A stretch of 64,000 bases of DNA from Gemmatimonas sp. (GCF_021298855.1 NZ_JAJTHI010000045.1:10709-74708), one strand, 5' to 3'; shown: positions 35,352 through 57,210, numbered from the stretch's first letter. Notes: a model not told the origin generated them from the sequence alone. Program-made: numbers and translations.

Positions 35352-36197
35352 TCAGGGGAGTCGCCGCACGAACTCGGTAATCAGGGCCTCGAACTGGCCG
35401 CCGGCGGCCTTCCCCGCCTCCATCACCTCGGCATGACTGAGCCGGTCAGCCGACAGTCCGGCCGCCTTGTTGGTGATGCACGAGACGGCCACGACGCGCA
35501 GGCCGATGGCGCGCGCCATGATGACCTCGGGCACCGTGGACATGCCCACGGCATCTGCGCCAAGGCGCTCGAGCATGCGCACCTCGGCCGGTGTTTCGTA
35601 CGTCGGTCCCAGCAGTCCGCAGTACACCCCGTCCTGCAGCGGCACACCGACCGCCGATGCCGCCTCGCGCATGAGTGCACGCAGCGCCGGATCGTACGGA
35701 TCGGACATGTCGGGGAATCGTTCGTCACCCGGCTCGACGGGCCCCGTGAGGGGATTGCGGAACATCAGGTTGATGTGATCGGCAATGAGCATCAGATCGC
35801 CCGGCGCGAAGGAACGGCGCACCCCACCGGCGGCGTTGGAGGCGATGTACACGGGGGCGCCCAGCGCGTGCAGCACGCGCACCGGGAACGCAGCGAGAGA
35901 CGCCTGGTGCCCCTCGTACATGTGGAATCGACCCGCCAGCATGACCACCGGCCGGCCGGCGAGACGTCCCAGCAGCACCTGCCCCGCATGACCGGCCACC
36001 GTGGCCACCGGAAAGCCGGGGATATGGGAGAACGGGATGGCCCGCGCCTGCTCGAGGCGGTGCGCCAACCCCCCGAGCCCTGACCCCAGCACGATGCCGG
36101 CCACGGGGGCCTCCCAGTCGCCCCCGCCCTGCTCGCGAATGAACGCCGCCGCGGCCTGCGCGTGCGGGCCCCCCGCCGACTGCCTGGCGGTCGTCAT
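35352..36197 (-). CDS. punA: Purine-nucleoside phosphorylase (trimeric type)
   Basis: GIVLGSGLG, GHAG, GRFHMYEG, NAAGG, GPTYETPAE, VGMSTVPE. Confidence 0.95.
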   Translation of the reverse strand: MTTARQSAGGPHAQAAAAFIREQGGGDWEAPVAGIVLGSGLGGLAHRLEQARAIPFSHIPGFPVATVAGHAGQVLLGRLAGRPVVMLAGRFHMYEGHQASLAAFPVRVLHALGAPVYIASNAAGGVRRSFAPGDLMLIADHINLMFRNPLTGPVEPGDERFPDMSDPYDPALRALMREAASAVGVPLQDGVYCGLLGPTYETPAEVRMLERLGADAVGMSTVPEVIMARAIGLRVVAVSCITNKAAGLSADRLSHAEVMEAGKAAGGQFEALITEFVRRLP

Positions 36198-37291
36198 GCG
36201 GCACCATCCACCTGATGGCCGGCCGGTAGAAAGAGCGCTGGCCAGGGCGATGTCATGCGGGCGAGGTCGCGTTCGGCGCTCGCGCGCAGCGCCTGTCGCT
36301 CCGCGTACGGCAGAAACCCGGCATCGAAGGCCTGGAGGGCCACCTGCGCCAGCGTCTCGTGGCTCCAGCCGAGGTGCACGGCGCAGCTCACGAATTCATC
36401 GGTGAGCGACACCCCGCTCATCATGGTGTTGTCCGTGTTCACCGTGACCAGCGCGCCCAGCTGGCGATAGCGTTCGATGGGGTGCTCGGCAAAAACGTGC
36501 ACGACCCGCGTCTGCACGTTGCTGGTGGGGCACACCTCGAGCGCGATGCGTCGGTCCACCACATAGGCCTCGAGCGCCGGGTCTTCGCGCAGCCGCGTCC
36601 CGTGTCCGATGCGATTGGCCCCACACTGGTGCACCGCCTCGTGGATGGATGCGGCGCCGTCGCCCTCGCCGGCATGGACCGTGACGGCCAGGTTGTTGTG
36701 CCGTGCGTACTCGAAGGCGGGGGCATGCGCCCGCGCCGGGTTGCCACGTTCACCACCCGCCAGATCGAAGGCCACGACCCCACGTCGCTGGTAGGCCACG
36801 GCGAGTTCGGCCATTGCCATGCTGTGCGGCCACGGCAGGCTGCGTAGCGCGCACACGATGAGCCGCGCCACGACGCCCCCCGGTGCCTCCCCCGCCTGCA
36901 GTCCAGCCAGCACCGCCTCCATGACCGCATCGGCCGAGAGGCCTTCGCGCGTGTGCAGCGCGGGACAGAACCGCACCTCCACGTAACGGATGCCGTCGGC
37001 GGCCGCATCGGCCACGAGTTCCCGTGCAATGCGCCGGAGTTCATCCGCCGTCTGCATGACCGCCAGGGTGATCTCGAACCGGGCGAGGTACTCCGCCAGG
37101 TCGTGCGCATCGTCGACGCGCATCCAGCGGGCCAGCGCTGCGTCATGCTGATGCGGCAGCGCGAGCCCGCGGGCGGCCGAGAGTTCGCGCAGCGTGGCCG
37201 CACGCAGGGAGCCGTCGAGGTGGCAGTGCAGCTCGGCCTTGGGCATCGCGCGGACGTGGGCGACGAAATCGGGATTGAGCGTCGGGGTCAT
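36194..37291 (-). CDS. add: Adenosine deaminase
   Basis: PKAELHCHLDGSLR, YVEVRF, FDLAGGE, TVHAGE, RIGHG, CPTSN, NTDN. Confidence 0.95.
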   Translation of the reverse strand: MTPTLNPDFVAHVRAMPKAELHCHLDGSLRAATLRELSAARGLALPHQHDAALARWMRVDDAHDLAEYLARFEITLAVMQTADELRRIARELVADAAADGIRYVEVRFCPALHTREGLSADAVMEAVLAGLQAGEAPGGVVARLIVCALRSLPWPHSMAMAELAVAYQRRGVVAFDLAGGERGNPARAHAPAFEYARHNNLAVTVHAGEGDGAASIHEAVHQCGANRIGHGTRLREDPALEAYVVDRRIALEVCPTSNVQTRVVHVFAEHPIERYRQLGALVTVNTDNTMMSGVSLTDEFVSCAVHLGWSHETLAQVALQAFDAGFLPYAERQALRASAERDLARMTSPWPALFLPAGHQVDGAA

Positions 37292-37527
37292 GGCGTACCG
37301 TCGCTCAGCCGCTCGCGCGCCGTCACGACCCGGAAGATCGCGCCGCCCACCACTGGCGTGTCGGCGGCGATGGGCAGTCCCCGACTGTCGGTGAGGCGCA
37401 GCCGTCCGCTTGCCAGGCCGTCCGCATCGTCGGGGAAAAGGGCGCGCACCGCATCGAGTGCCACCGTTCCGGCGGGCACGGACACGCCACGCTCGTTCAC
37501 GAACACACGGACATCCGTGTTGGACAT
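37288..37527 (-). CDS. Small (79 aa) cysteine-free beta-grasp/ubiquitin-like hypothetical protein
   Basis: MSNTDVRVFVNERGVSVPAGTVALDAV..RLTDSRG..GGAIFRVV; coupled on both sides (TGATG and ATGA). Confidence 0.75.
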   Translation of the reverse strand: MSNTDVRVFVNERGVSVPAGTVALDAVRALFPDDADGLASGRLRLTDSRGLPIAADTPVVGGAIFRVVTARERLSDGTP

Positions 37528-40500
37528 CAATTGCTCCCTGCCGTGATGGGACGCACCCGCTCGGTGGGGTCGCCACGCACCGGTTGCGGCTGTTGCGAGA
37601 GGAAGGCGCGTACGGCGTCGATATCGCGCACCGTGAGAAACTCGGTGGCGATGGCTCCGGCCAGCTGCCCGCTGAAGTCGTTCTCCACCATGAAATCGTT
37701 CATGGCCACCGTGTAGATCCGATCGGGCTCGATGGGGCGCCCTGCCGCGTCGAGCGCGCGCACGACCCGCGCCCCGCGTGGACGGGCCGGGTCGTATTCG
37801 ACGGACACTCCGCTCACGTGTGCGTCCGGCCGACCGCGATCCACCGTGGCTTCGAGCAGCTGCAGCAGCGTACGCCCGCGCAGGCGGACGCGTGCCACGA
37901 GATTGCCGAACGGCGTCACGTAGTGGATCCCGCCGTAGTTCAGTGGGCCGGCGGCAAGGTCGGCCCGCACGCCGCCATTGTTCCACATCCCCACGTCGCT
38001 TCCGGCAGCAGCGCGGACAGCGTCGGCCAGCATGTTCCCCACCGGGTTCTGCGCACCGGCCCGCCGCATGGGCTCGGCCAACGTGGCCACCGGCTGCTGC
38101 AATTGCGGACGTACGCGCTCCATGGCCATGCGCACGATCGAATCGACCTCCGGCACAGCCTCGGCCACCTCATCACCGCGCACCGGGCGTACCTCGGTGC
38201 GTGCCGGTCCGCCACCCACCGGCACGTCCACCACCACGATGCCACGGCCACTCGATGTGGGTTCGACGGCAGGCATGCCGTTGAAGTCGAGCGAGAGGTT
38301 CACATGGGCGTGTCCCATGACGTACACGTCGGGGCGATCCGCCCCCATCTCGCCCAGGCGCCGGCCAATATCGATGCCGGCACCGCTGCAGTCGGTGGGG
38401 CGATCGCGCTCACAGCGGCCGCCGTCGTGAATGACCGCCACCACGACCTGTGCGCCCGCCGCGCGCAACGCGCGGGTGCGCTCGACGAACACCGGGACCG
38501 GGTCGAGGAAGGTGAGCGGCCCCACCTTGCGGCGGCTGGCGGTGTTGGGGGTGTGCGTTCCGGCGGCGCCCACGATGCCGATTCGCACCGTGCCACGCGT
38601 GACGATCGTGTCGGCACGCAGCCAGGCGGGCCGCTCGCCGTCGGGGCCACGCACGTTCGCGCCCAAGATGGCGTGGCGCAGCTCGCGCATGCGCGCGCGC
38701 AGCGTGTCCTGACCGAAGTCGAATTCATGATTGCCCAGCGCACCGGCGGCCACGTCGAGGCGGTTCACCACGTCCACGGTGGGCCGTCCGCCGTGCCAGT
38801 CGGAGGCCGGCGAGCCGGTGAACAGGTCGCCGGCATCGATCACCACATGCTGGCAGGCGGGGGGCTGGCATTCCCGTTGGGCGCGCCGAATGGCCGCCGA
38901 CAGCGCCACGGCGCCCCCCACGGGGGCGTTGCCCTGATCGAACTGCGGACGCAACGCCGCGTGAAAATCGCTCATGGCGATCACCCGCACGGTCGGCGAT
39001 CCGGAAGGGGCGCTGGCCGCGCGCCCCGGCTGCTGCTCGGCGTAGGCCTGCTCGCGGGCCGACGCCGGTTCCAACGTCCAGTTTCGCTGCGCGTAGGCGG
39101 CGGGATCGAGCGTGCCGGCCCGGCGCACTTCATCGATGACCAGCTGCCGGATGTCGAGGTCCCGGTCGTAGACCAGCGGCGCGCCGGCCAACATGGAGAA
39201 CCCGCCGCCGCCCCCCTGCCGGTAATTGTTGAGGGCCATCGTGAAGCTGTCGGTGGGGAGCACCTCGCGCCCGCGTACCTGCAGACGGGTGATGCGCTGG
39301 CCGACCGGGCGCCGCAGGTCGATCGTGTAGTCCGCGCCACTCACGACATCGAAGTTGTAGCCCGGTACCGACGGATCGAGGATGCCCCCGGCGGCCCGGC
39401 CATCGGCCCCCACGGTGCGATAGTATCGCGCCGCATGTTCGAGGAAGTCCCGGAGCTGCGCGCCGGTGATGCGCACGGCGCGGAGCGTATTGTCGTAGGG
39501 ATACAGCCGCGACAGCTCGGCCTGGGTGATGGCGCCCGTATCGAGCGCCGCCTCCAGGGAAAAGGCGGCCGTGGCCGACAGCTCGGCGCCGGTGGTGCGT
39601 CGCATGACCTCGTTGACGAGGTCCGTGATGGGGGCGTCGGTGACGCGCGCGCTGTCGGCGCGCCACGCCACGCTCGTACGCCCCACCGGCTCATTGACCC
39701 ACGCAACGGTGGCCTCGTGTGTGCTGCGCGCCGCCGCCAGCACGTCGGGGTGCTCGCGATGCCCCGCCACCCGCACGGCGCGCCCGGTACGCGCCACCAC
39801 GCTCCAGCGGCCCTGGCGCCGCTCGAGGGTGAGCGTGCCCAGCCCCACCGACCCCGCCCAGTTGCGGGGCTGCATGACGAGCGCCCCGTTGATGGTGGAA
39901 TCCACCAGCTCGCGGTGCGAGTGCCCGTAGACCACGACGTCGATGCCGTCGATTTCCCGTGGAATGCGTGCCGCCACGTTTTCGGACGGGAGCCCCGTGG
40001 CGACCGTGTCGTAGCTCGCCGGTTCGTTCAACCCGGAGTGCAGCAGCACCAGCACGACATCGGCCTTCGCGCGGCGCGCCTCCTGCACACGCTGACGCAC
40101 CGCCGGCACGATATCGGTGACCGTCAGCCCCGCGGCCTTGAGATGTTCGCGATCCCACACCATGGAGCCGGGGGTCGTCCCCCCGATGATGGCCACCCGC
40201 ACGCCGCGTCGCGTGACCATGGTATACGGGGCCACCCAGGGTTTCCCCTGCGCGTCCAGCACGTTGGCCGCCACGAACGGAAAGCCCGCCTGCGCGATCG
40301 CCTTCTGCAGCAGCGGCACGCCGTAGTTGAACTCGTGGTTCCCCAGCACGGCGGCATCGTAGCGCATGACGTTCATGGCGGCGATGACGGGGTGCACCGG
40401 CGTGGGCCGAACGCGCGCCGCCACGTAGAGCAGCGGGTTGCCCTGCAGGATGTCGCCCCCTTCCACGAGCACGACGCCGTCGGGATTGGCCCGCCGGGCG

Positions 40501-40730
40501 GAGTCGACAATGGTGGCGGCCGCCGCCAGGGAGTGCGCCGGGTCGGCGCGCCCCGCGTAGTAGTCCCACCCACGCAACCGCCCGTGCACGTCGGTAGTGG
40601 CGGCAATCGTGAGCTCGACGCGGCGCGGGGCCCGTTGCGCCGCCAGCGGCTCGATCATCAACGCGGCCAGCGAGGCCAGCCCCCCGGCGGGCAGCAGTAC
40701 GGCACACAGCCAAGACAATGGACGTCCCAT
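37527..40730 (-). CDS. Secreted tandem 2',3'-cyclic-nucleotide phosphodiesterase / 5'-nucleotidase (two metallophosphoesterase + two 5'-NT C-domains)
   Basis: Module 1: TTDVHG, GGDILQG, GNHEFNYG, GHSH, LYPYDN. Module 2: SDFHA, AGDLFTG, GNHEFDFG, GHAH, NNGGVR, VTPFGN. Confidence 0.92.
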   Translation of the reverse strand: MGRPLSWLCAVLLPAGGLASLAALMIEPLAAQRAPRRVELTIAATTDVHGRLRGWDYYAGRADPAHSLAAAATIVDSARRANPDGVVLVEGGDILQGNPLLYVAARVRPTPVHPVIAAMNVMRYDAAVLGNHEFNYGVPLLQKAIAQAGFPFVAANVLDAQGKPWVAPYTMVTRRGVRVAIIGGTTPGSMVWDREHLKAAGLTVTDIVPAVRQRVQEARRAKADVVLVLLHSGLNEPASYDTVATGLPSENVAARIPREIDGIDVVVYGHSHRELVDSTINGALVMQPRNWAGSVGLGTLTLERRQGRWSVVARTGRAVRVAGHREHPDVLAAARSTHEATVAWVNEPVGRTSVAWRADSARVTDAPITDLVNEVMRRTTGAELSATAAFSLEAALDTGAITQAELSRLYPYDNTLRAVRITGAQLRDFLEHAARYYRTVGADGRAAGGILDPSVPGYNFDVVSGADYTIDLRRPVGQRITRLQVRGREVLPTDSFTMALNNYRQGGGGGFSMLAGAPLVYDRDLDIRQLVIDEVRRAGTLDPAAYAQRNWTLEPASAREQAYAEQQPGRAASAPSGSPTVRVIAMSDFHAALRPQFDQGNAPVGGAVALSAAIRRAQRECQPPACQHVVIDAGDLFTGSPASDWHGGRPTVDVVNRLDVAAGALGNHEFDFGQDTLRARMRELRHAILGANVRGPDGERPAWLRADTIVTRGTVRIGIVGAAGTHTPNTASRRKVGPLTFLDPVPVFVERTRALRAAGAQVVVAVIHDGGRCERDRPTDCSGAGIDIGRRLGEMGADRPDVYVMGHAHVNLSLDFNGMPAVEPTSSGRGIVVVDVPVGGGPARTEVRPVRGDEVAEAVPEVDSIVRMAMERVRPQLQQPVATLAEPMRRAGAQNPVGNMLADAVRAAAGSDVGMWNNGGVRADLAAGPLNYGGIHYVTPFGNLVARVRLRGRTLLQLLEATVDRGRPDAHVSGVSVEYDPARPRGARVVRALDAAGRPIEPDRIYTVAMNDFMVENDFSGQLAGAIATEFLTVRDIDAVRAFLSQQPQPVRGDPTERVRPITAGSN

Positions 40731-40867
40731 CAGGGAATGCTAGTCGGTCCCCCGGGTCGTTTGGAGTGGCGTACGCGGCGGTCCGAATCCGTCCTTGCCG
40801 GGTCCCCCCTGCCGCCGCGAACTTCCCGTGGCACGGTCCGATCGGCCCCGGTTGCCGATACCTACTC

Positions 40868-40910
40868 GTTACACCGCCGTAACCGTCCGGAAACGACGGC
40901 GGTCCATGCT
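40868..40910 (+). promoter_or_regulatory. Pho-box-like promoter of udk-phoB-phoR
   Basis: GTTAC (40868), GTAAC (40879), GAAAC (40890) at 11-bp spacing, then CATGCT at 40905. Confidence 0.6.
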
Positions 40911-40947
40911 TGAGACATCCCTCGTGGACGACCCGGTCACTCCGCTC

Positions 40948-41622
40948 ATGAAACCGCTCATCATCGGCATCGCGGGCGGCACCGGCTCGGGGAAATCGAC
41001 GGTGGCTCGCAAGGTGGCAGAAGCCCTCCCCAACGCCTCCGTCGCCTTCCTGGAGATGGACGCGTATTACCGGGATTTCCGGCACCTGACCCTGCAGCAG
41101 CTGCATCACGTCAACTGGGATCATCCCGATGCCTTCGACGTGGAGTTGCTCTCGACTCACCTCGAGGCGCTCGCCCGCGGCGAAGCGGTGGACATGCCGG
41201 TGTACGAGTTTGCCACGCACTCCCGCAGCAGTCGCACCCGGCGCATCGAGCCGGCGGACGTCGTCGTGATCGACGGCATCCTGCTCCTGTCGGACCCCAA
41301 CGTCCGGGCGCAGTGCGATGTGAAGGTGTTCGTCGATGCCGATCCGGATATCCGCCTCATTCGCCGCATCCGACGCGATACGGCCGTGCGCGGCCGCACG
41401 CTCGAATCGGTGCTCGACCAGTATCTCACGACCGTGCAGCCGATGCATCTGCAGTTCGTCGAACCCAGCAAGCGGTACGCCGACGTCATCGTCCCACGGG
41501 GAGGGAGCAACACGGTCGCGATCGAGATGATCGTGGCCAAGATCCAGCGTCGGCTGCACACCCGCGCCCAGTCGCGGGTGCCGCGCGCCGACGCCGAACC
41601 GGCCGACGCCGGCACCTACTGA
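40948..41622 (+). CDS. udk: Uridine kinase
   Basis: IIGIAGGTGSGKST, MDAYY, NWDHPDAFD, IDGIL, RLIRRIRRD, FVEPSKRYADVIVP. Confidence 0.96.
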   Translation: MKPLIIGIAGGTGSGKSTVARKVAEALPNASVAFLEMDAYYRDFRHLTLQQLHHVNWDHPDAFDVELLSTHLEALARGEAVDMPVYEFATHSRSSRTRRIEPADVVVIDGILLLSDPNVRAQCDVKVFVDADPDIRLIRRIRRDTAVRGRTLESVLDQYLTTVQPMHLQFVEPSKRYADVIVPRGGSNTVAIEMIVAKIQRRLHTRAQSRVPRADAEPADAGTY

Positions 41623-41629: not shown

Positions 41630-42352
41630 ATGAACCCTGCTCCGAGCACCGCTGATCGCATTCTCGTCGTGGACGACGAAACCGAGATCGTCGCCCTGGT
41701 GGCTTACCACCTGGCGAAAACCGGTTATCGCGTCTCCACGGCGTCGTCGGGGCAGGACGCACTCGAGTTGGCGCGTCGTGAGCGCCCGTCGCTCATCGTG
41801 CTCGACCTCATGCTGCCGGGCATGTCGGGGTTCGACGTGCTCGAGCAACTGCGCCTCGACGAGAGTACGCGCGACATCGCCGTCATCATGCTCACGGCCC
41901 GCCGGGAAGAACCTGATCGCATCCGCGGCCTGTCGCTGGGTGCCGATGACTATCTCACCAAACCGTTCTCGCCGGCCGAACTGGTGCTGCGGGTGGCGGC
42001 CATTCTGCGCCGGACCGGGTCCGTGCAGCCGTCCGGCAACACCGATGCCCTGGTCATTGGGCCGCTGCACATCGACCGGGCGGCCATGACGGTGAACGTG
42101 AGCGGCGAGGCCGTGGAGCTTACCCCCACCGAGTTCAAGCTGCTCCTCACCCTGGCCGAGCGCCGCGGGCGCGTCCAGGGACGCGGGCACCTGCTGGAAA
42201 CCGTGTGGGAAGCCGCCCCGGACATTCAGACCCGCACGGTCGACATGCACGTGCAGCGACTGCGCACCAAGCTGGGCACCGCCGGCGACCTCATCGAGAC
42301 CGTGCGCGGATTCGGCTACCGCCTGCGCGCCGCGGCGCCGCGCGCCTACTGA
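41630..42352 (+). CDS. phoB: OmpR-family response regulator, PhoB-like
   Basis: ILVVDDE, LDLMLPG, GADDYLTKPFS, RTVDMHVQRLRTKLG; phosphate gene context. Confidence 0.85.
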   Translation: MNPAPSTADRILVVDDETEIVALVAYHLAKTGYRVSTASSGQDALELARRERPSLIVLDLMLPGMSGFDVLEQLRLDESTRDIAVIMLTARREEPDRIRGLSLGADDYLTKPFSPAELVLRVAAILRRTGSVQPSGNTDALVIGPLHIDRAAMTVNVSGEAVELTPTEFKLLLTLAERRGRVQGRGHLLETVWEAAPDIQTRTVDMHVQRLRTKLGTAGDLIETVRGFGYRLRAAAPRAY

Positions 42353-43792
42353 GTGCGGCTCACCCAGCGACTGCTGCTGCAGAGCGCCGTGGTCGCCACG
42401 CTACTGGTGGCGATCATTCTGGGGGCTGTGGAGTGGCGGGTACGGCACCGGCTGGAGCTGCAGGATACCGTCGCCGTGGGGATGGCCCAACCGGCCGACC
42501 GCGCCAGCCTGGAGGCGGCCGCCGATGAGGCGCTGTTGCGGGCCATCCGCAACGACGTGCTCATTGCCAGTGGCATCGCGCTCATCGTGGCCCTGCTGTT
42601 GGCGCGCGGACTCGCCGGGCAGGTGACGCGCCCCATGCAGGAGTTGCGCGACATGGCGCAGGATCTGGCCGGCGGCGATCTCACCGCCCGACCGTCGCGG
42701 TCCATCAGTGGCGGCGAGGTGGGGGACCTGGCCGATTCGCTGCGCCGCGTGGCCGAGCAGATGGAAACGCGCCTCTGGGAGATGCAGTCGGAGGAAGCGC
42801 TCCTGGTGGCGCTTACGGAGTCGCTCAACGAAGGCGTCGTGGCCGTGGACGCGCGCAAGCGGGTGGTGCGCATCAATGAGCGCGGACGTCAGCTGCTCAA
42901 CTTGCGTCAGCCGCTCCCCTTCCCCGCCAACGAGCTGCCACAGGAACCGCAGCTGCAGGAAGCGTTGCAGCTGGTGTTGTCGGGGGCCCCGCCCATCGTG
43001 CGCGAAATCCAGCTCGCCGGTCGCACGCTGGCGCTCACGGTACGCGCTCTGAGTGGCGGGGGCGCCGTGTTTGCCATGTACGACCTCACCCCGGTTCGCC
43101 GGCTCGAGACGGTGCGCAGCGACTTCGTGGCCAATGTGTCCCACGAGCTGCGCACGCCGCTCACGATCATTGGCGGATTCGTGGAGACGCTGCAGGACGA
43201 CGATGTCCCGCCCGACCTGCGGCGGCAGTTCCTGGGCATGGCGGAGGCCAACGTGCAGCGCATGCAGCGCATCGTCGATGACCTGCTCGACCTCTCCCGC
43301 ATCGAGTCGGGAGGATGGCGTCCGGCGCCAATGGAGCTGCGCGTCGAGGAGCTCGCCGCGGATGCCCTCGCCCCGTTGCAGTCCCGCGCCGATGACAAGG
43401 GAGTATCACTGGGCATCGACGTGGCCCCCAACGCCCGGTTCATCCGGTGCGATCCCACCGCGGCGGGACAGATACTGGTGAATCTCGCCGAGAACGCCCT
43501 GCGCCACACGGCCGCGGGGCGGGTGGTCGTGTTTGCTGAACGCGAGGGGGACGGGGTATGGATGGGGGTGCACGATACCGGCATGGGGATCGGTCCCGAA
43601 CATCTGCCGCGCATCTTCGAGCGGTTCTACCGCGCCGATCCCGGTCGGTCCCGCGAGGCCGGCGGCACGGGCCTCGGCCTCTCCATCGTGCGCCACCTGG
43701 CAGAGGCGCACCACGGACGCGTCCGGGCTGAAAGCACGGTGGGGGTGGGCACGACCATTGCCGTCTGGCTCCCCACCCCACTGCCCGCCTGA
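42353..43792 (+). CDS. phoR: Sensor histidine kinase, PhoR-like (2 TM, HAMP, PAS, HisKA, HATPase)
   Basis: DFVANVSHELRTPLT, NLAENA, DTGMGI, FERFYR, GGTGLGL. Confidence 0.85.
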   Translation: MRLTQRLLLQSAVVATLLVAIILGAVEWRVRHRLELQDTVAVGMAQPADRASLEAAADEALLRAIRNDVLIASGIALIVALLLARGLAGQVTRPMQELRDMAQDLAGGDLTARPSRSISGGEVGDLADSLRRVAEQMETRLWEMQSEEALLVALTESLNEGVVAVDARKRVVRINERGRQLLNLRQPLPFPANELPQEPQLQEALQLVLSGAPPIVREIQLAGRTLALTVRALSGGGAVFAMYDLTPVRRLETVRSDFVANVSHELRTPLTIIGGFVETLQDDDVPPDLRRQFLGMAEANVQRMQRIVDDLLDLSRIESGGWRPAPMELRVEELAADALAPLQSRADDKGVSLGIDVAPNARFIRCDPTAAGQILVNLAENALRHTAAGRVVVFAEREGDGVWMGVHDTGMGIGPEHLPRIFERFYRADPGRSREAGGTGLGLSIVRHLAEAHHGRVRAESTVGVGTTIAVWLPTPLPA

Positions 43793-44691: not shown

Positions 44692-44781
44692 ACTCGGGCG
44701 ACAATACTGCGCGGACCTGTCTCGCACCAGATCGCCCGCCCGCGGATACCGCCCCATCGCGCTGACCGGGTCCGGACCTGG

Positions 44782-47790: not shown

Positions 47791-47861
47791 GAGCGCGCGC
47801 TCATTACGGAAGGGATCGTCAGGTCTCGACGATGCCGTTCACCATTCAATCACGACTCCCG

Positions 47862-49665: not shown

Positions 49666-49708
49666 AACGGCCAGGGTCGCGATGCGGCCCTGGCCGTTCT
49701 CCTGTTTT
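49666..49708 (+). terminator. Intrinsic terminator-like hairpin after the beta-helix lipoprotein
   Basis: 15-bp stem AACGGCCAGGGTCGC/GCGGCCCTGGCCGTT (one G-U pair), followed by CTCCTGTTTTT. Confidence 0.65.
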
Positions 49709-49724: not shown

Positions 49725-50366
49725 ATGCCACAGCCTTCGCGTCCTTCTGTCCTGCTCGCCGTGGCCGTCGCCACATGCCTCGCGGCGGCATGCGGCGAAC
49801 CGTCCCCACGCACGGCGGCCGATTCCCAGGCGGCTCACGTCGCCGAGGTCATCGCCGCCGGCGGCACGGTCGATTCCATCCTGCCCATGGCCGAGCAGCT
49901 GCGTCGCTTCCGGGTGGGTCTCGACTCGGTGGACACGCTGCGCCACGCGGCGCCCGACCGCGAGTCGCTGGTGCGCCGCTTCCTGACGGCACTCTCGACG
50001 AGCGATACAGCCACGCTCAACGCCCTCACGCTCGACCGGGCCGAGTTTGCGTATCTGTACTACCCCACATCGGCCATGAGCCAGCCACCGTATGAAGCGC
50101 CACCCCAGTTGCTGTGGGGACAGATCATGACCAGCAGCAACGAGAGTCTGCCCAAGGCGCTGGCGCGACTGGCCGGCACCTCGGTTTCGCTCGCGCAGCT
50201 GCGCTGCCCCGATTCCGCGACGGTTGAGGGGAAGAACCGGCTGCATCAGCAATGCGCGCTGCGCCTGCGTGCGGGGTCGACCACGCTGCCCGACGGGCGC
50301 TGGTTCGGCACCATCCTCGAGCGTGAGGGGCGATTCAAGTTCATCGGCTACGCCAACGCGTTATGA
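49725..50366 (+). CDS. Hypothetical lipoprotein (213 aa)
   Basis: LAAAC lipobox; ATGA overlap with pstS. Confidence 0.78.
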   Translation: MPQPSRPSVLLAVAVATCLAAACGEPSPRTAADSQAAHVAEVIAAGGTVDSILPMAEQLRRFRVGLDSVDTLRHAAPDRESLVRRFLTALSTSDTATLNALTLDRAEFAYLYYPTSAMSQPPYEAPPQLLWGQIMTSSNESLPKALARLAGTSVSLAQLRCPDSATVEGKNRLHQQCALRLRAGSTTLPDGRWFGTILEREGRFKFIGYANAL

Positions 50367-51517
50367 GGGCGTGGCGCCGACACGGCGTACGTCTTTCGGC
50401 CGTGCTTGCCGTTGCCACACTGCCTGCGGTGTCGTGTGGCGAGGGGGTGCGCCAGCCCCCCATGGACAGCGCCGGCGCCCCGGCGGCAACCAGTGAGGGC
50501 GTGTCCGTAGCCGAATCCCAACGGCTGCGGCTGACCGGCGTCGGCGCCACGCTGCCGTACCCGCTGTATGCGCGCTGGTTCAACGAGTATGCGGCGGTCG
50601 CCCCCGTGCGCATCACCTACCGGTCGGAAGGATCGCCGCAGGGGATCGCCGCGGCGCTCAACGGGTCGGCGGATTTCGGCGCATCCGACATTCCGGTGTC
50701 CGATAGCGCCATGGTGGCCAGCGGCCGTTCGGTGGTGCATATCCCCATGGCGGTCGGCGCCGTGGCGATTACGTACAACGTCCCCGGCGCCACGCGTCCG
50801 CTGCGCCTGTCCGGGGAGGTCATCGCCGATCTGTTTCGCGGGCGCATTGCGTTTTGGGACGATGCACGCCTTCGCGCCATCAACCCCGGCGTGACGCTGC
50901 CGCACCTCGCGGTGCGCCCCGTGCGTCGCAGCGACGGCAGCGGCACGGCGCGCATCTTTGCCCGGTACCTGCAGTTGGTGCAAGGCGCGGACGCCCCGTG
51001 GCCAGACGGGGACTCGGTGATCGTGCGTGACGGGAACGAGGCGGTCGCCGCCGAGGTGAAGGCCACGGCCGGAGCGGTGGCGTACCTCGAGGTCGTGTAT
51101 GCGCGACAGAACCGTTTGCCCGCGGCGCACGTCCGCAATCGCGCGGGGCAGTTCGTGTCGCCCATGCCCTTCGAGATTGCGACCGCTGCGGCCAACACCC
51201 TCGACGGTCTCGCCCCGTTCGACGACGAGGGGGTGAGCGGGTTTCGCCTGTCACTGCTGGACGCCGAGGGCAGACAGGCGTATCCGCTGGCGGCCTTCAC
51301 TTGGCTATTGATCGTACCGTCGCAACTCTCGGCGGCCAAGCGTACCGCCCTTGCCGATTTTCTGCATTGGGCGTTTCTCGAAGGGGCGGCAAGCGCCAGC
51401 AGCATGGGCTATGTGCCGCTCCCGTCCGCCGTGGCGGACGCCGTGTTGGCGCGGGTGGATGCCGCGCTGCGATGCAACCCTTGCGCGACGGGGGCGGCTT
51501 CCGGTACGGTACGCTGA
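50363..51517 (+). CDS. pstS: Phosphate-binding protein PstS (lipoprotein)
   Basis: GATLPYPLY, GS, DFGASD, RSDGSGT, AYLE, YPLAAFTW, MGYVPLP; AVSC lipobox. Confidence 0.92.
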   Translation: MRAWRRHGVRLSAVLAVATLPAVSCGEGVRQPPMDSAGAPAATSEGVSVAESQRLRLTGVGATLPYPLYARWFNEYAAVAPVRITYRSEGSPQGIAAALNGSADFGASDIPVSDSAMVASGRSVVHIPMAVGAVAITYNVPGATRPLRLSGEVIADLFRGRIAFWDDARLRAINPGVTLPHLAVRPVRRSDGSGTARIFARYLQLVQGADAPWPDGDSVIVRDGNEAVAAEVKATAGAVAYLEVVYARQNRLPAAHVRNRAGQFVSPMPFEIATAAANTLDGLAPFDDEGVSGFRLSLLDAEGRQAYPLAAFTWLLIVPSQLSAAKRTALADFLHWAFLEGAASASSMGYVPLPSAVADAVLARVDAALRCNPCATGAASGTVR

Positions 51518-51593: not shown

Positions 51594-53186
51594 ATGACGG
51601 CTCCAGTAGCAAGCACCGGCGATGTTCGCATCGCGGCCATCGACATCGGGTCGAACTCGGTGCGGCAGATCATCGCCGATGTCTCGCCGGCGGGCGGCAT
51701 TCGGGTGGTCGATGAAATGAAGGCCATGCCCCGTTTGGGCGATGGCCTGGAGAGCACGGGGGCGCTGTCGACCACCGCGATCGACTCGGCCGTGGCTGCG
51801 GTGCAGCGCATGGTCACGCTGGCCCGGCAGCTGGCTGCCGCGCGTATCGAGATCGTGGCCACCAGCGCGGTGCGTGACGCGAGCAATTCGCGCGAGTTCA
51901 CGGCGCGCCTCACCGCTGCCACCGGGCAACCGGTGCGGGTCCTCAGCGGCGAAGAGGAAGCGCTGCTCTGTTTCCGCAGCGCTCTGGCGCACTTCGAGCT
52001 GGGCGCGGGACGCACCGTGGTCATGGACATCGGGGGCGGTTCCCTCGAACTCGTGCTCGCGAAGGATGGTCTCATCGAGCGCGTGGCCTCGCTCCCCTTC
52101 GGGGCCGTGCGGCTCACCGAGAAGTTCCTCACCCCGGCCGTGCGGCCGCGCCGGGTGCGGGCGCTGCGCGAGCATGTGCGCGAGGGGCTGCGCAAGGCCG
52201 TGCCGGTCAAGGACTGGCGCGGCGCCCAGGTGATCGGGTCAGGCGGCACGTTCACGAATCTCGCGGGCATCGTGCTGGCGCGGCAGCACGTCACCGTGCG
52301 TTCGGCGCACGGCACGCGCGTCACGCGGGCCGAACTCGAGCATGTGCTGGAGTGGCTGCAGCGCATGGAGGCGCCGGAGCGGCAACAGGTGCCCGGGCTC
52401 AACCCTGCGCGCGCCGACATCATCGTGGCGGGGCTTGCCGTGGCGGCCGAAGTGCTGGCACGCTTCGACCCGCGCGATCTGCTCACCTCGGCCTTCGGCA
52501 TTCGCGAAGGCATTCTGCTGGAAGCCGCCCGCGTTACCCCCCGGGTGGCCGATCCCGGCGTCGCTCGCGACCGATCGGTGCGGGAGTTCGCGGAACGCTG
52601 TCACTTCGAGGCGCCGCACGCCCGGCAGGTGCAGGCCCTGTCGCTGCAGCTGTTCGATGCCCTCGAGGCACGCCTCGGACTCACGGCGGCCGACCGCCGC
52701 CTCCTGTCCGACGCGGCCCTGTTGCACGATGTGGGCTACCACATCAACTACGAAAAGCATCACAAGCATTCGTTCCATCTCATCTCGCACGCCGATCTGC
52801 TGGGCATGACGCCGGCCGAGCAGATCATGATTGCGCACATTGCGCGCTATCATCGCGGCGCGCCGCCCAAGGCCAAGCACGCGGGCTTCGGTCAGCTCGA
52901 CCGCGCCACCCGTGAGCGCATCGTGAAGCTGTCGGCGCTGCTGCGGTTCGCCGACGGCATGGATCGCGGGCATGTGAGCGCCGTGGGCGGCATGGCGGTA
53001 AAGTGGACGACCGACGCCGTGCGGGTCACGGTGCATGAAGCCGAAGGCGCCACGAACGTGCGGCTCGAATGCTGGGGCGCGAGCCGGAAGCGCCGGCTGC
53101 TGGAGGAGGTGCTGGGGCGGCCGATCATCGTCCTGCTTCCCGACGGCACCCCCATCAGCGCCGACGACGAAGGCGACGGCGAGTGA
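51594..53186 (+). CDS. ppx: Exopolyphosphatase Ppx/GppA with HD domain
   Basis: AAIDIGSNSVR, ATSAVRDA, SGEEEA, DIGGGSLEL, GIREG, LLHDVG. Confidence 0.94.
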   Translation: MTAPVASTGDVRIAAIDIGSNSVRQIIADVSPAGGIRVVDEMKAMPRLGDGLESTGALSTTAIDSAVAAVQRMVTLARQLAAARIEIVATSAVRDASNSREFTARLTAATGQPVRVLSGEEEALLCFRSALAHFELGAGRTVVMDIGGGSLELVLAKDGLIERVASLPFGAVRLTEKFLTPAVRPRRVRALREHVREGLRKAVPVKDWRGAQVIGSGGTFTNLAGIVLARQHVTVRSAHGTRVTRAELEHVLEWLQRMEAPERQQVPGLNPARADIIVAGLAVAAEVLARFDPRDLLTSAFGIREGILLEAARVTPRVADPGVARDRSVREFAERCHFEAPHARQVQALSLQLFDALEARLGLTAADRRLLSDAALLHDVGYHINYEKHHKHSFHLISHADLLGMTPAEQIMIAHIARYHRGAPPKAKHAGFGQLDRATRERIVKLSALLRFADGMDRGHVSAVGGMAVKWTTDAVRVTVHEAEGATNVRLECWGASRKRRLLEEVLGRPIIVLLPDGTPISADDEGDGE

Positions 53187-53193
53187 GCCGACC

Positions 53194-53220
53194 CGAGGCG
53201 GACGCGTTCAGTCCGCCTCG
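53194..53220. terminator. Hairpin between convergent ppx and ppk1
   Basis: Perfect 10-bp stem CGAGGCGGAC/GTCCGCCTCG followed by a pyrimidine tract. Confidence 0.65.
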
Positions 53221-53228: not shown

Positions 53229-55328
53229 CTAGCGCTTGGGCGGTCGCGCCGCCTCGGTACCCCACGGTTCCTTCATGAAAATCTGGTGCGTGGCGCGCGC
53301 GGCCTCACCCCGTGGCTCCCGCCGGCGGTACTGCCCGTCGGCCCCCAATTCCCAGGCCTGCCGGTTGTCGCTCAGGCAGGTGGCCAGCACCGCCTCCAAC
53401 CCCTTGTGCAGGAGTTGGTCCTCGATGGGCGTCATGACTTCCACGCGCCGATCGAAGTTGCGCGGCATCCAGTCGGCCGAGCCGATGTAGTACTCCGGGT
53501 TGCCGGCGTTCGCGAAGAACGCCAGCCGTGAGTGCTCGAGGAAGCGCCCGATGATGCTCACCACCCGGATATGCTCGCTCATGCCCGCCAAGCCCGGCAC
53601 GAGGCAACAGATGCCGCGCACGATGAGGTCGATCTTCACTCCGGCCTGCGACGCGCGGTACAGGGCCGCAATGATCTCGGGATCGACGAGGGCGTTCATC
53701 TTGGCAATGATGCGCCCGCCCTTCCCGGCGATCGCGTGCGCCGTTTCCCGTTCGATGAGTTCCAAGAGGCGCGCACGCAGCGAGACCGGGGCCACCGCGA
53801 GCCGCCGATAATGCTTCTGCCGCGACACACCGGTCAGCGAATTGAACAGGTCGGACAGGTCGGCGCCGATTTCCGGATGACAGGTGAACAACCCCATGTC
53901 GGTGTACAGCCGGGCCGTCCTGCTGTTGTAGTTGCCGGTGCCGATGTGCACATAGCGACGAATGCCGTCGGCGTCTCGGCGCACGACGAGTACCGTCTTG
54001 GCGTGGGTCTTGAGCCCCGGCAGCCCGTATGCCACATGAATGCCCACACTTTCCATGGTGCGGGCAAAGGTGATGTTGTTGGTCTCGTCGAAGCGCGCCT
54101 GCAGCTCGATGATGACCGCCACCTGCTTGCCCGCTTCGGCCGCCTCGGTGAGCGCCCGGACGATGGCCATGTCACCGGAAGTGCGGTACAGCGTGAGCTT
54201 GATGGCCAGCACCTGCGGATCGTTGGCCGCCGCCTCGAGAAACGTCTCGACCGATGCGGTGAACGACTCGAAGGGATGGTGCACGAGCACATCGCGCTCG
54301 CGAATCACGTCGAACAGGTTGCGCCCGTCCCGGAAGGCGGGCGGCACCTGCGGCGTGTGCGGCGGGTCGCGCAGTTCGGGAAGGTCGGTGAGGGCGAGCT
54401 GCAAGAGGTCACCCATCTCGAGCAGGTCATCCACGTCGTGCACATCGTCCGGCCCGAGGGGCGCCACCAGCTGGGTCTCGCTTTCGCTGAGCTCCTCCAG
54501 CAGCAGCGCCCGAATGCGTTCGGGCATGTCGTGCTGCACTTCGAGCCGCACCACTTCACCAAAGCGCCGCTGGAAGACCTGCTGTTCGATGGTTTCGAGC
54601 AGATCCTCGGGCTGGTCCATCTGGCCCAGGTCGAGGTCGGAGTAGCGCGTGATGCGGAAGGTGAACCAGCGCTGCACCTCCATGCCCGGGAACAGTGCTC
54701 CGAGGTGGGCGCCAATGACATCCTCGAGCGGCACATAGCAGTGTCCGCGCCCGAACGACACCCACCGCGGCAGCGAGCGCGGCACCTTCACGCGCGCGAA
54801 GTGCGCCTTGCCCGTGACCGGGTCGCGAATGTCCACCGCCAGCGAGAGCGAGAGGTTGGAGATGTAGGGGAACGGGTGTCCGGGGTCGACCGCGAGCGGC
54901 GTGAGCACCGGGAACACCTGGGCCTCGAAGAACTCGTGCACGCGCGCCCGCTCGGCATCGTCGAGCGTCTCCATCTTGACCAGATGGATGTCGTGGCGCG
55001 CGAGTCCGGGCAGCAGTTCGCGCTTGAGGACGCGACGCCGGCGGGCCAGCAGTTCGCGCACGCGCGTGCGAATGGCGACCAGCTGCTCGGCCGGTGCCAG
55101 CGGATCGGGGGCGTATTGCGGGGCCCCCGAGGCCACCTTTCGGCGCAGCCCGGCGACCCGCACCATGTAGAATTCGTCGAGGTTGGTGCTGAAGATCGCC
55201 AGGAACTTGAGGCGCTCGAGCAGCGGCACCCGTTCATCGAGGGCTTCTTCCAGCACCCGCGCATTGAAGTCGAGCCACGAGAGCTCGCGATTCAGATAGG
55301 GCAGCGACAGCGACGTGACCGAGGACAT
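53229..55328 (-). CDS. ppk1: Polyphosphate kinase 1
   Basis: LNRELSWLDFNARVL, NLDEFYMVRV, DPGHPFP, HHPF, ARFDE, KTHAK, GTGNYN, GRFLEHSR, SADWM. Confidence 0.98.
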   Translation of the reverse strand: MSSVTSLSLPYLNRELSWLDFNARVLEEALDERVPLLERLKFLAIFSTNLDEFYMVRVAGLRRKVASGAPQYAPDPLAPAEQLVAIRTRVRELLARRRRVLKRELLPGLARHDIHLVKMETLDDAERARVHEFFEAQVFPVLTPLAVDPGHPFPYISNLSLSLAVDIRDPVTGKAHFARVKVPRSLPRWVSFGRGHCYVPLEDVIGAHLGALFPGMEVQRWFTFRITRYSDLDLGQMDQPEDLLETIEQQVFQRRFGEVVRLEVQHDMPERIRALLLEELSESETQLVAPLGPDDVHDVDDLLEMGDLLQLALTDLPELRDPPHTPQVPPAFRDGRNLFDVIRERDVLVHHPFESFTASVETFLEAAANDPQVLAIKLTLYRTSGDMAIVRALTEAAEAGKQVAVIIELQARFDETNNITFARTMESVGIHVAYGLPGLKTHAKTVLVVRRDADGIRRYVHIGTGNYNSRTARLYTDMGLFTCHPEIGADLSDLFNSLTGVSRQKHYRRLAVAPVSLRARLLELIERETAHAIAGKGGRIIAKMNALVDPEIIAALYRASQAGVKIDLIVRGICCLVPGLAGMSEHIRVVSIIGRFLEHSRLAFFANAGNPEYYIGSADWMPRNFDRRVEVMTPIEDQLLHKGLEAVLATCLSDNRQAWELGADGQYRRREPRGEAARATHQIFMKEPWGTEAARPPKR

Positions 55329-55374: not shown

Positions 55375-56412
55375 TCAGAGAGGATTGAAGGCCGCGAGCA
55401 GCCAGTAGCTCAGTGCTGCCATGCCCGCACTCGCGGGGATGGTAATGACCCACGCCCACACAATGCGGCTGGCCAGCCCCCAGCGCACGGCCGACAGGCG
55501 ATTGGTGGCCCCCACCCCCACGATCGCGCCGGTGATCGTGTGGGTCGTGGACACGGGAATCCCCAGTTTGGAGGCGGCGAGAATGACCATCGCGCCGCCC
55601 GTTTCGGCACAGAAGCCGCCCACGGGGCGCAGTTTGGTGATGCGGGTCCCCATGGTGTGCACAATGCGCCAGCCACCGAAGAGCGTACCCAGCGAGATCA
55701 TGGTGTAGGCACTGAGCTCCACCCACACCGGGATGACGTCGAGCGACGTGACGTGGAAGTGCGCCAGCCACCCGGTCTGGTTGGCGAAGGTGGCCTGCGT
55801 GGCCACGAGCAGCCCCACGATGATGCCCATCGTCTTCTGGGCATCGTTGCCACCGTGCGCGAGCGAGAGCAGCGCCGAACTGGTGAGTTGCAGCACCCGG
55901 AACACCCTCTCCGCCTTCGTGTTGACCACGTTGCGGAAGAGGTTGAAGACCAGCACCATGAGCAGGAAGCCCATGAGCGCGCCGAGCATGGGCGAGAGCA
56001 CGATGGCCGAGAGCGTCTCGATCCACTTCTTGCCCCACAGCAGCGCCGAGAAGCCGACCTTGGCCACCGCGGCGCCGGCATAGCCGCCGATGAGGGCGTG
56101 GGAGGAGCTCGACGGAATGCCGAACCACCACGTGATGAGATTCCACGCAATGGCGCCCAGCAGCCCGCCCAGAATGACGTTGGCATCGACCACGTTGAGG
56201 TCGATGAAGCCGGCCGCGACCGACTTGGCCACGGCGGTGCCCACGAAGAACAGCGCGGAGAAGTTGAACACCGCCGCCCAGATGACGGCGGCGAGGGGAC
56301 TCAGCACGCGCGTGCCGACGATGGTGGCGATCGAGTTGGCGGAGTCGTGGAAGCCGTTGATGAAGTCGAAGGCCAACGCAACCGCGACGATGAAGATGAC
56401 GAAGGTGACCAC
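55375..56412 (-). CDS. pit: Inorganic phosphate transporter, PiT family
   Basis: GFHDSANSIAT, PSSSSHAL, AHGGNDAQK, PVSTTH. Confidence 0.96.
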   Translation of the reverse strand: MVTFVIFIVAVALAFDFINGFHDSANSIATIVGTRVLSPLAAVIWAAVFNFSALFFVGTAVAKSVAAGFIDLNVVDANVILGGLLGAIAWNLITWWFGIPSSSSHALIGGYAGAAVAKVGFSALLWGKKWIETLSAIVLSPMLGALMGFLLMVLVFNLFRNVVNTKAERVFRVLQLTSSALLSLAHGGNDAQKTMGIIVGLLVATQATFANQTGWLAHFHVTSLDVIPVWVELSAYTMISLGTLFGGWRIVHTMGTRITKLRPVGGFCAETGGAMVILAASKLGIPVSTTHTITGAIVGVGATNRLSAVRWGLASRIVWAWVITIPASAGMAALSYWLLAAFNPL

Positions 56413-56430: not shown

Positions 56431-57042
56431 TCAGCTGTTCTTGAGCGCGATGCTCTCGAGGGCGTTGGACACGTCCTCGCACTCGTCGATGGCTTCCTCG
56501 AGCGCATCGAAGATCTCCTTCCACTTCAGCACTTCGATTGCCGGCTCGTCATGTTCGAAGAGCGCGCCCACCGACTGCGCGTAGAGCACATCGCCCTCTT
56601 CCTCCAGCAGCTTGATGGCCCGGCCATGCTCCATCATGCGCTGCCGCTTGGAAATGTCCCCGACCGAGGCCAGGATCTCCTTGCCGCACCGCACCAGCAC
56701 ATCGGCCATCTGCACCCCGCCGTCGCGCGCCGTGGTCACCCGGAACATCACGACACGGCGCGAAGCCCCGTTGATGAGGTCAATGACGTTGTCGAGCCGC
56801 TTCGCGAGCAGGTGAATGTCTTCGCGATCGAGCGGCGTGACGAAGCTCGTGTCGATGCGCTGGTTGATGAGGTGCACGATGGCGTCCCCATCGGTCTCCA
56901 CCTTCTTGATCTGCACCGAGATCTGCGCCGCGTTGGCGGGATTCTCGAAGAGGGTGCGCAGCAACGTGGCCGCTTCGCCGATATGCACGGCAAGGCCGCG
57001 GAAGTGGTCGAAGAACGTTTCGTCTTTGGAGAAAAGCTTCAC
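56431..57042 (-). CDS. DUF47 (PhoU-like) Pit accessory protein
   Basis: ETDGD..SFVTPLDREDI..LDNVID, LEEEGD..LKWKEI..LEEAID. Confidence 0.92.
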   Translation of the reverse strand: MKLFSKDETFFDHFRGLAVHIGEAATLLRTLFENPANAAQISVQIKKVETDGDAIVHLINQRIDTSFVTPLDREDIHLLAKRLDNVIDLINGASRRVVMFRVTTARDGGVQMADVLVRCGKEILASVGDISKRQRMMEHGRAIKLLEEEGDVLYAQSVGALFEHDEPAIEVLKWKEIFDALEEAIDECEDVSNALESIALKNS

Positions 57043-57136
57043 GGCAGCGTGTTGGATTGAGGAGGTGTTCGGCGCCGCAGTGGGGACGGGCTCGGCAGAA
57101 GCTGCGGGCTTCGCGTCCCGGTGTGACTGCGGCTGT

Positions 57137-57210
57137 GTAACGAAAACGTCACCGAGGGAACTCCGCCATCCACCCGCTGGCCCCGATTTCCCTTGTTACA
57201 GAGGCGAGAC
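57137..57210 (-). promoter_or_regulatory. Two pairs of 11-bp-spaced GTNAC-like repeats upstream of DUF47-pit-ppk1
   Basis: GTAAC 57137 / GTCAC 57148; GTTAC 57195 / GAGAC 57206. Confidence 0.35.

Follow-up and report, generated by a model that had tools for sequence, protein, structure and literature searches.

In described phosphate (Pho) systems, each PHO box consists of two or more direct repeats of an 11-nt unit, in which seven bases are conserved and four vary, and an OmpR-family regulator binds these units head-to-tail; the inorganic phosphate (Pi) transporter Pit is regulated in variable directions (PMC4415409). For Gemmatimonas aurantiaca, a single cluster was reported to hold every predicted phosphate gene, namely pstSCAB, ppx, ppk, pit, and five regulator genes (PMC3473371), and a 2023 survey listed pstSCAB, phoBR, and ppk across the phylum (PMC10581226). 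Here, a related cluster is described in a 64,000-nt stretch of a Gemmatimonas sp. contig (GCF_021298855.1, NZ_JAJTHI010000045.1:10709-74708), called the window hereafter. It comprises 15 consecutive genes (35352-57042) in about six transcription units: pnp, add, a nucleotidase gene, udk, a PhoB/PhoR-like pair, sir2, an outer-membrane transporter gene, the lipoprotein genes U588 and U237, pstS, ppx, ppk1, pit, and DUF47. As the two Gemmatimonadota reports precede it, the supercluster as such is not new; new are a repeat motif shared by four of its units, the apparent loss of pstCAB-phoU accompanied by a roughly threefold faster evolution of pstS, and a covarying hairpin around the motif between the transporter and lipoprotein genes.

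Further precedents concern the outer membrane. BT4055/BT4056 combine a non-SusC transporter with a putative lid lipoprotein of the pectin-lyase superfamily; the two genes occur close together in 621 genera, and BT4056 is reported to share 40% identity with Fjoh_0546 and a distant relationship with Caulobacter ElpS (preprint 10.1101/2023.03.17.533168). In Flavobacterium johnsoniae, Fjoh_0545/0546 belong to the phoBR operon, and few genes are induced more strongly by Pi depletion (PMC8115612), while ElpS (CC0170) is an outer-membrane lipoprotein made on phosphate starvation and encoded beside the TonB-dependent receptor CC0171 (PMC2996285).

A directional 11-bp-phased repeat at four units

The first-pass annotation of the window had described 11-bp-phased GTNAC-type repeats in four intergenic regions, and both an exact pattern and a weight matrix bear this out. 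The exact pattern GTNAC-N6-GTNAC occurs four times in the window against 0.6 expected, a count that none of 100 shuffles reached. Three of the matches are intergenic (40868, 47752, and 57137) and one lies inside sir2 (44346); the site at 44797 (GTGAC-N6-GTTGC) has one mismatch, yet is the best conserved of all. A matrix trained on relatives alone, so that no site of the window entered it, finds exactly four sites at 19-24 bits in the 64 kb (40867, 44796, 47751, and 57135); the runner-up position has 12.7 bits, and all others stay below 10 bits. All four are intergenic and on the strand of the downstream gene, and the same matrix recovers the same four positions in Gemmatimonas phototrophica AP64. 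The sense-strand consensus is cGT(G/T)ACA-N4-cGTT(A/G)CA. That both half-sites share the extended form c-GTnAC-A indicates direct and not inverted repeats, and weaker units keep the 11-bp phase (GATAC at 40857, ATGAC at 47774). An inverted-repeat reading of the CRP/FNR type was rejected because the two half-sites carry identical flanks (c...A) and are succeeded by more units at the 11-bp spacing. The exact match within sir2 (44346-44361), with a counterpart at equivalent codon positions in locus L016, is probably coding-constrained and not a site.

The four sites differ in strength and conservation. Site 1, in the spacer shared by the divergent nucleotidase and udk genes, scores 19.0 and 12.4 bits, and about 13 of 14 loci have the sequence GTTACAnnnncGT(G/A)(G/A)C before udk. 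Site 2 has the top matrix score (23.9 bits), its GTGAC and GTTGC being invariant in 20 of 20 relatives. When about 20 Gemmatimonadaceae loci are aligned, little of the sir2-transporter spacer is conserved beyond the start-codon region and the block cGTGACAnnnncGTTGCAnnnncGTnnGnnnncGAAACC...GTCACGGAGCTT, within which conserved bases recur each 11 nt over four or five units. Site 3 (GTGACACAACCGTGAC) is present in each of the 18 loci that span the transporter-U588 spacer. At site 4, upstream of DUF47, the second unit (GTTACA) is found in six of six relatives and the full site in three of them. A second block upstream of DUF47 (57192-57213, about 150 nt before its start; sense TGTCTCGCnnnTGTAACAA) contains two units 11 nt apart and is conserved in all six loci, with 8.8 matrix bits on the opposite strand. 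A sigma-70 promoter scan of 40-58 kb gave a single match, inside a gene and no better than shuffles.

The link to phosphate comes from the relatives with pstCAB-phoU: in four of five, the motif lies between pstS and pstC, where it covers the stop codon of pstS and precedes pstC by about 45-60 nt. Because it stands just before pstC there, the motif is most likely the PHO box of this family. The layout is that of a PHO box, with the motif upstream of the udk-regulator-kinase operon in the window and before pstC in the relatives.

The presumed regulator is encoded directly in the operon that follows site 1. PhoB (TIGR02154) is the best of 95 families matching the response regulator, whose closest solved relatives include RegX3 (the mycobacterial phosphate regulator), PhoP, and PhoB, besides non-Pho proteins such as PrrA, MtrA, and BaeR. 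The best-scoring families for the kinase, which has two hydrophobic segments at its N-terminus, are PnpS and PhoR. The pair is called PhoBR-like by its context and not by its scores. In the window it is linked to pstS only; five related loci from metagenome-assembled genomes (MAGs; L006, L010, L011, L012, and L015) carry pstSCABB-phoU in the same cluster.

Two sites are associated with predicted hairpins. In the one enclosing site 3, 87.7% of the cells are paired over 19 loci, whereas slid controls reach 21-41%; its single changes are G.U-compatible on the sense strand and three pairs change on both sides, a covariation count to be read with caution, since related sequences may outscore shuffled controls even where there is no structure. 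GTNAC is self-complementary and some pairing is unavoidable at every site; nine outer pairs of this hairpin go beyond such self-pairing. In the udk leader, the arms CCGCCGT/ACGGCGG of the window correspond to GTCGT/ACGAC in relatives, both arms being changed (read by eye from the alignment). Rfam holds no family for the window, the transporter/U588 spacer hairpin, or the udk leader. The box embedded in the spacer hairpin may combine an internal promoter element with an RNA structure controlling the relative amounts of transporter and lipoprotein transcript.

Orphan pstS and the outer-membrane pair

That pstCAB and phoU are absent from the window was confirmed by tblastn with a relative's pstC, pstA, pstB, and phoU, which gave no match at E<=1e-3. 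In the window, in G. phototrophica, and in loci L002, L003, L004, L007, L008, and L016, pstS is directly followed by ppx; in the five MAG loci named above, pstC-pstA-pstB-pstB-phoU stands exactly between the two genes. Because sister lineages carry the block at this very spot, its absence looks like a secondary loss from this site, a derived state rather than part of an original design. The loci lacking pstCAB fall into two clades of a crude neighbor-joining tree without bootstrap, which hints at more than one loss. The tandem pstB pair itself is seen at 18360-19996 of L006 and at the same place in L010, L012, and L015.

Mean pairwise identity of PstS is 57% among loci without pstCAB and 80% among loci with it, while the corresponding values for the transporter (80% and 81%), U588 (80% and 78%), and Ppx (84% and 83%) hardly change. 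PstS alone thus differs between the two groups, and the orphan gene evolves about three times faster. The window PstS nevertheless keeps the motifs GATL, GSP, FGASD, and RRSDGSGT in an alignment to solved PstS, which, from E. coli PstS, we take to be the Pi-binding residues. It is possible, if rather unlikely, that the G. phototrophica-like lineage has lost Pst and PhoU genome-wide, maybe repeatedly, and that sensing and uptake were rewired to the transporter pair, the orphan, fast-evolving PstS (still able to bind Pi), and Pit-DUF47; this would then be a Pho system running without canonical Pst/PhoU sensory input. The contrast of lineages with and without pstCAB-phoU is relevant to phosphate sensing by PhoR in clusters that lack Pst and PhoU.

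The TonB-dependent transporter is homologous (E=1e-44) to a Bacteroides transporter that precedes a lipoprotein of Beta_helix_4 (PF28492), a recent Pfam family found on all homologs of U588. U588 is 39% identical to a Bacteroides PF28492 member (P0319; E=2e-61). Its AlphaFold model (predicted local distance difference test, pLDDT, 78) combines an Ig-like N-domain with a right-handed β-helix, and the protein is the putative partner or 'lid' of the transporter. No sequence relatives of U588 were found in the PDB, and Foldseek returned generic β-helix enzymes and tailspikes only (E>=0.005, template modeling score <=0.43); as these fold matches are weak and generic, no catalytic assignment is made. 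U237 is a family-specific lipoprotein with no Pfam or NCBIfam match and no solved relative; a hidden Markov model finds no homolog in the distant loci, and a single-sequence structure model (pLDDT 39) is unusable.

The transporter/lipoprotein pair recurs in Myxococcota-type, Ignavibacteria, Bacteroidota, Eisenbacteria, and Gammaproteobacteria loci. Five of 25 distant pair loci (from Bacteroidota, Ignavibacteria, Myxococcota-type, and Opitutia MAGs) carry pstS, pstC, phoU, ppk1, or pit within about 18 kb, against a chance baseline of a few per cent that is a rough estimate and not a computed value. One Bacteroidota locus reads transporter, lipoprotein, x, pstS, pstC, pstA, pstB, phoU, kinase, and in other phyla the pair is flanked by pst genes together with regulators homologous to that of the window (46-53% identity). 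In L065, a gut Bacteroides contig, the pair comes after a FecR-like gene and has a PstS-family (PBP_like_2) gene (11413-12519) 4 kb downstream. In the gammaproteobacterial loci L063 and L064 (Pseudoalteromonas and Halioglobus), a Beta_helix_4 lipoprotein with two domain copies (about 900-1170 amino acids, aa) precedes the transporter gene, and in Pseudoalteromonas it directly follows a DUF3450-ExbB-ExbB-ExbD-TonB-TPR cluster.

Gene content and boundaries of the cluster

Genes were chosen by third-position G+C and named by Pfam and NCBIfam (Table 1). The G+C content of the window is 68%; its proteins are 73-88% identical to those of Gemmatimonas/Gemmatimonadaceae genomes, and its sequence also occurs in freshwater metagenomes. 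All functions named in the first-pass annotation were recovered; its count of 16 genes becomes 15, and it had omitted sir2. Curated equivalog cut-offs are exceeded by purine-nucleoside phosphorylase (PNP), adenosine deaminase, uridine kinase, PstS, and PPK1, while the nucleotidase modules, regulator, kinase, TonB-dependent receptor, Ppx/GppA, PHO4/Pit, and DUF47/PhoU_div are matches at family level only. For Ppx, membership of the Ppx/GppA family is clear by Pfam (195 bits), with TIGR03706 at 265 bits under its cut-off of 307. The longest open reading frames (ORFs) overshoot the likely starts of udk, U588, U237, and ppx. The pit gene lies directly downstream of DUF47/PhoU_div on the same strand, with an 18-nt gap. 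At the position of the U588 terminator, relatives have hairpins of differing sequence.

Table 1. Genes, repeat sites, and hairpins of the cluster, numbered from the first nucleotide of the window
Feature	Unit	Position	Strand	Evidence and remarks
pnp, purine-nucleoside phosphorylase, 281 aa	1	35352..36197	-	NF006054 347 bits (cut-off 218); PF01048
add, adenosine deaminase	1	36194..37576 (longest ORF)	-	TIGR01430 311 bits (cut-off 216)
Exported tandem nucleotidase or 2',3'-cyclic phosphodiesterase, 1067 aa	1	37527..40730	-	PF00149 + PF02872
Site 1 (candidate box)		40856..40883	+	Three phased units, cGATACctact cGTTACAccgc cGTAACc; divergent nucleotidase/udk spacer; exact match
udk leader hairpin, 7 bp		40875..40905	+	CCGCCGT/ACGGCGG; predicted fold; overlaps last repeat unit, just before udk start
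udk, uridine kinase	2	40906..41622 (ORF opens 40795; likely start 40906 or 40948)	+	NF004018 287 bits (cut-off 180)
OmpR-family response regulator, PhoB-like	2	41630..42352	+	Best NCBIfam family TIGR02154 (PhoB)
Histidine kinase, PhoR-like	2	42353..43792	+	TM-TM-HAMP-PAS-HisKA-HATPase (TM, transmembrane); Pfam domains
sir2, Sir2/CobB NAD-dependent deacylase	3	43846..44757	-	NF001753 256 bits (cut-off 243)
Site 2 (candidate box array)		44797..44845	+	GTGACCaatt cGTTGCAcgac tGTCGAatga tcGAAACC, then GTCACGGAGCTT; upstream of transporter gene
TonB-dependent transporter	4	44914..47709	+	CarboxypepD_reg + Plug + barrel; PF13620, PF13715, PF07715; TIGR01782 224 bits
Intergenic hairpin enclosing site 3		47737..47776	+	-30.3 kcal/mol, z=-6.0
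Site 3 (candidate box)		47752..47778	+	GTGACAcaac cGTGACCgggt cATGAC; exact match; 22.2 bits
U588, surface-type lipoprotein, 588 aa	4	47832..49598 (likely start 47862)	+	Lipobox FAAC; PF28492 (Beta_helix_4)
Strong intrinsic terminator after U588		49666..49698	+	15-bp stem + T-rich tail, CTCCTGTTTT; ends unit 4
U237, family-specific lipoprotein	5	49725..50366 (likely start 49725)	+	Lipobox LAAAC; stop overlaps pstS start
pstS, phosphate-binding lipoprotein	5	50363..51517	+	TIGR00975 280 bits (cut-off 205); without pstCAB
ppx, Ppx/GppA-family exopolyphosphatase	5	51594..53186 (ORF opens 51351; likely start 51594)	+	PF02541, PF21447
Hairpin terminator between convergent ppx and ppk1		53194..53220	.	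Ends unit 5
ppk1, polyphosphate kinase 1	6	53229..55328	-	Four domains; TIGR03705 837 bits (cut-off 466)
pit, PHO4-family inorganic phosphate transporter	6	55375..56412	-	PF01384 312 bits
DUF47/PhoU_div, usual Pit-associated PhoU-like protein	6	56431..57042	-	PF01865 65 bits
Site 4 (candidate box)		57135..57153	-	Sense gGTGACGtttt cGTTACAc; upstream of DUF47-pit-ppk1; exact match; 19.4 bits

The nucleotidase contains two metallophosphoesterase + 5'-nucleotidase_C modules (PF00149 and PF02872 each match two stretches), carries the signal peptide MGRPLSWLCAVLLPAGGLASLAALMIEPLAAQ, and matches CpdB/UshA-type NCBIfam models under their cut-offs. On the sense strand (40731-40747, strand -), CTAGCATTCCCTG stands immediately before its ATG, the block GAATGCTAG is shared by all relatives, and a -10-like TAGCAT lies 6 nt before the start codon without a Shine-Dalgarno sequence, which suggests that the mRNA is leaderless. 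In the following gene, add, the domain begins at residue 106 and Met95 (about 37294) is the likely start. The claim that phosphate is captured from nucleotides stands for the exported nucleotidase only; the enzymes encoded by add, pnp, and udk handle nucleosides, which have already lost their phosphate. PNP, moreover, uses up Pi. The gene sir2 is syntenic in every relative whose sequence reaches it, and it has no evident role in phosphate metabolism, though it is retained in the cluster.

Both flanks are devoid of phosphate genes: to the left lie SRP54, Lon, prepilin peptidase, SpoU methylase, and M48 peptidase, to the right rhomboid, DnaK, and HtrA. Of these, the rhomboid gene (57244-57900, strand -), placed between DUF47 and dnaK, is only a 192-aa ORF with poor codon bias, compared to 256 aa in G. 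phototrophica, and may reflect a frameshift or an assembly error. Elsewhere in the window, a 427-aa ORF (2206-3489, strand +) shows an unusual plug-plus-TonB_C fusion, with CarboxypepD_reg, Plug, and TonB C-terminal domains and no barrel detected, and two large paralogous Sortilin/BNR-repeat proteins of 1081 and 1029 aa are encoded at 4835-8080 and 15318-18407 (both strand -).

Interpretation and comparison with known systems

The locus is best read as at least four units under the common control of a PhoB-type regulator, a reading that is somewhat more likely than not. In the proposed mechanism, the PhoR-like kinase and the PhoB-like regulator of the udk operon would form the signaling pair, with the regulator binding head-to-tail to the 11-bp direct-repeat units (cGT(G/T)ACA plus four variable bases). 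Its boxed targets would be its own operon, through the spacer shared with the divergent nucleotidase-add-pnp unit, the transporter, U588, and DUF47-pit-ppk1. Under phosphate limitation, the exported nucleotidase may free Pi from nucleotides, while the transporter and its surface lipoprotein would carry some phosphorus-containing substrate across the outer membrane. PstS would bind Pi in the periplasm, Pit with DUF47 would move it over the inner membrane, and Ppk1 and Ppx would build up and draw down polyphosphate; a route from nucleotide or polymer through Pit import to polyphosphate storage is conceivable. The window lineage would have lost pstC-pstA-pstB-pstB-phoU from the pstS-ppx site. Gene identities, the conserved gene order, the motif with its orientation and conservation, the terminators, and the homology of the transporter and lipoprotein are shown directly; we infer the motif-binding protein, activation or repression at each unit, the transporter substrate, and the phosphate response. 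Taken as a whole, the region is probably the core Pho gene neighborhood of a freshwater Gemmatimonas species, with a PhoB-type regulator acting on 11-bp units and with the physiology and lineage loss as proposed. The integrated regulon suggested by the first-pass annotation is retained in part: a directional motif is shared by four of about six units and precedes pstCAB-phoU in relatives, but no box was found before the U237-pstS-ppx unit.

Several observations weigh against this reading, and some of them favor other explanations. The gene order is identical in G. phototrophica AP64 (CP011454.1, 2819452-2841185) and in L002, L003, L004, L007, and L008, but M48 peptidase, rhomboid, and DnaK, which are unrelated, are equally syntenic; since such neighbors keep their order too, clustering within this family is weak evidence alone. 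The order could thus be inherited without shared control, each unit being regulated separately in closely related genomes, as the position of sir2 in the middle of the cluster and the matrix scan, which finds no box before U237-pstS-ppx, would also allow. This explanation is improbable, for one directional motif is common to four units and absent from the rest of the 64 kb, the spacers are otherwise poorly conserved, and the transporter pair is repeatedly linked to pst genes across unrelated phyla. Also against the main reading, 20 of the 25 distant pairs have no phosphate gene nearby and the gammaproteobacterial pairs adjoin TonB-ExbBD or unrelated genes without a phosphate link. Within the cluster, sir2, add, pnp, and udk have no direct role in phosphate capture. 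Hardly more probable than inherited order is a two-component system that answers another signal (nucleotides, envelope stress, or the transporter substrate), the motif then marking a smaller, local regulon unrelated to phosphate. The regulator scores 241 bits against the PhoB equivalog cut-off of 296, and the kinase 299 bits for PnpS (cut-off 400) and 257 for PhoR (cut-off 334); PrrA, MtrA, and BaeR are among the closest solved regulators, and pstCAB-phoU, the usual sensory partner of PhoR, is missing here from the window lineage. Nonetheless, PhoB and PnpS/PhoR remain the top-scoring families, the motif precedes pstCAB-phoU in relatives, homologous regulators flank the pair together with pst genes in other phyla, and the G. 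aurantiaca phosphate genes, including regulators, were reported in this one cluster (PMC3473371).

A somewhat stronger, though still unlikely, alternative is that the conserved elements are mainly RNA structures (processing, stabilizing, or attenuating hairpins), the 11-bp repeat being a by-product of stem-loops. It would account for the stability of the transporter/U588 spacer hairpin, for the both-side and G.U-compatible changes in its stem, for the complementary differences between the arms of the udk leader hairpin, and for the constant self-pairing of GTNAC-N6-GTNAC; as site 3 lies inside this long covarying hairpin, part of its conservation may indeed be at the RNA level. On the other hand, the best-conserved site (44797) has no hairpin in the predicted fold and runs on as four or five 11-bp units, the loop and repeat bases are invariant where pure structure should allow variation, the half-site flanks are repeated directly and not inversely, and no Rfam family matches; the excess over shuffle controls can, as said, arise in related sequences without structure. 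A common PhoB-type regulon would predict such a shared, directional motif and its place before pstCAB-phoU in relatives, and it remains the preferred reading.

The genus Gemmatimonas was first obtained in culture as an accumulator of polyphosphate, and lakes and soils commonly harbor its relatives; to our knowledge, phosphate regulation in the genus has never been studied experimentally. The candidate PHO box and the list of boxed operons make the regulon testable in the cultured strains G. phototrophica AP64 and G. aurantiaca T-27, and the link of the transporter and lipoprotein to pst/pho genes across phyla bears on what this widespread, uncharacterized pair transports. The added value of the locus lies in a testable PHO box for Gemmatimonadota, in a pst loss accompanied by accelerated PstS evolution, and in a hairpin-embedded box.

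Compared with the classical PHO boxes (E. coli CTGTCAT, S. coelicolor GTTCACC; PMC4415409), the window motif has the same unit layout, while its consensus cGT(G/T)ACA is family-specific and its binding putative. On the opposite strand it reads TGT(C/A)AC, near the E. coli half-site, so that its orientation to the gene is opposite to that in E. coli. The cluster of G. aurantiaca T-27 belongs to the same genus, and its layout is shown by the five MAG loci with pstCAB-phoU, whereas the window and G. phototrophica AP64 are without pstC, pstA, pstB, and phoU at this site; the 2012 remark on G. aurantiaca is a single sentence that names neither the motif, nor the transporter/lipoprotein pair, nor the nucleotide genes (PMC3473371).

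The outer-membrane pair resembles Fjoh_0545/0546 and Fjoh_3857/3856 (PUSIV/PUSIII of F. johnsoniae), in which a transporter of the CarboxypepD_reg type with Plug is followed by a lipoprotein of the pectin-lyase fold near phoBR, both being strongly induced when Pi is depleted (PMC8115612). Flavobacterium is without Pst altogether, and U588 differs by its extra Ig-like N-domain. The connection to Fjoh_0546 runs through the Bacteroides member (39% identical to U588) and the reported 40% identity of BT4056 and Fjoh_0546, not through a direct alignment; F. johnsoniae was absent among the best 120 matches to a homolog from a Flavobacterium MAG. With ElpS/CC0171, the window shares a lipoprotein gene beside a gene for a TonB-dependent receptor, an arrangement of wide co-occurrence. 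Release of ElpS is assisted by a type II secretion system whose genes lie beside its own, and no such system is present at the window locus; its receptor CC0171 was reported to be constitutively expressed (PMC2996285), and the homology of ElpS and U588 is taken from the literature only. As for BT4055/BT4056, the PF28492 member of Bacteroides follows a CarboxypepD_reg transporter, both being homologous to the window pair, and a lid role is predicted there too (preprint 10.1101/2023.03.17.533168), although the identity of P0319 with BT4056 is not confirmed. Placed by its homology to the Bacteroides proteins and by the published descriptions, the window pair is a probable member of the family of BT4055/4056, Fjoh_0545/0546, and CC0171/ElpS.

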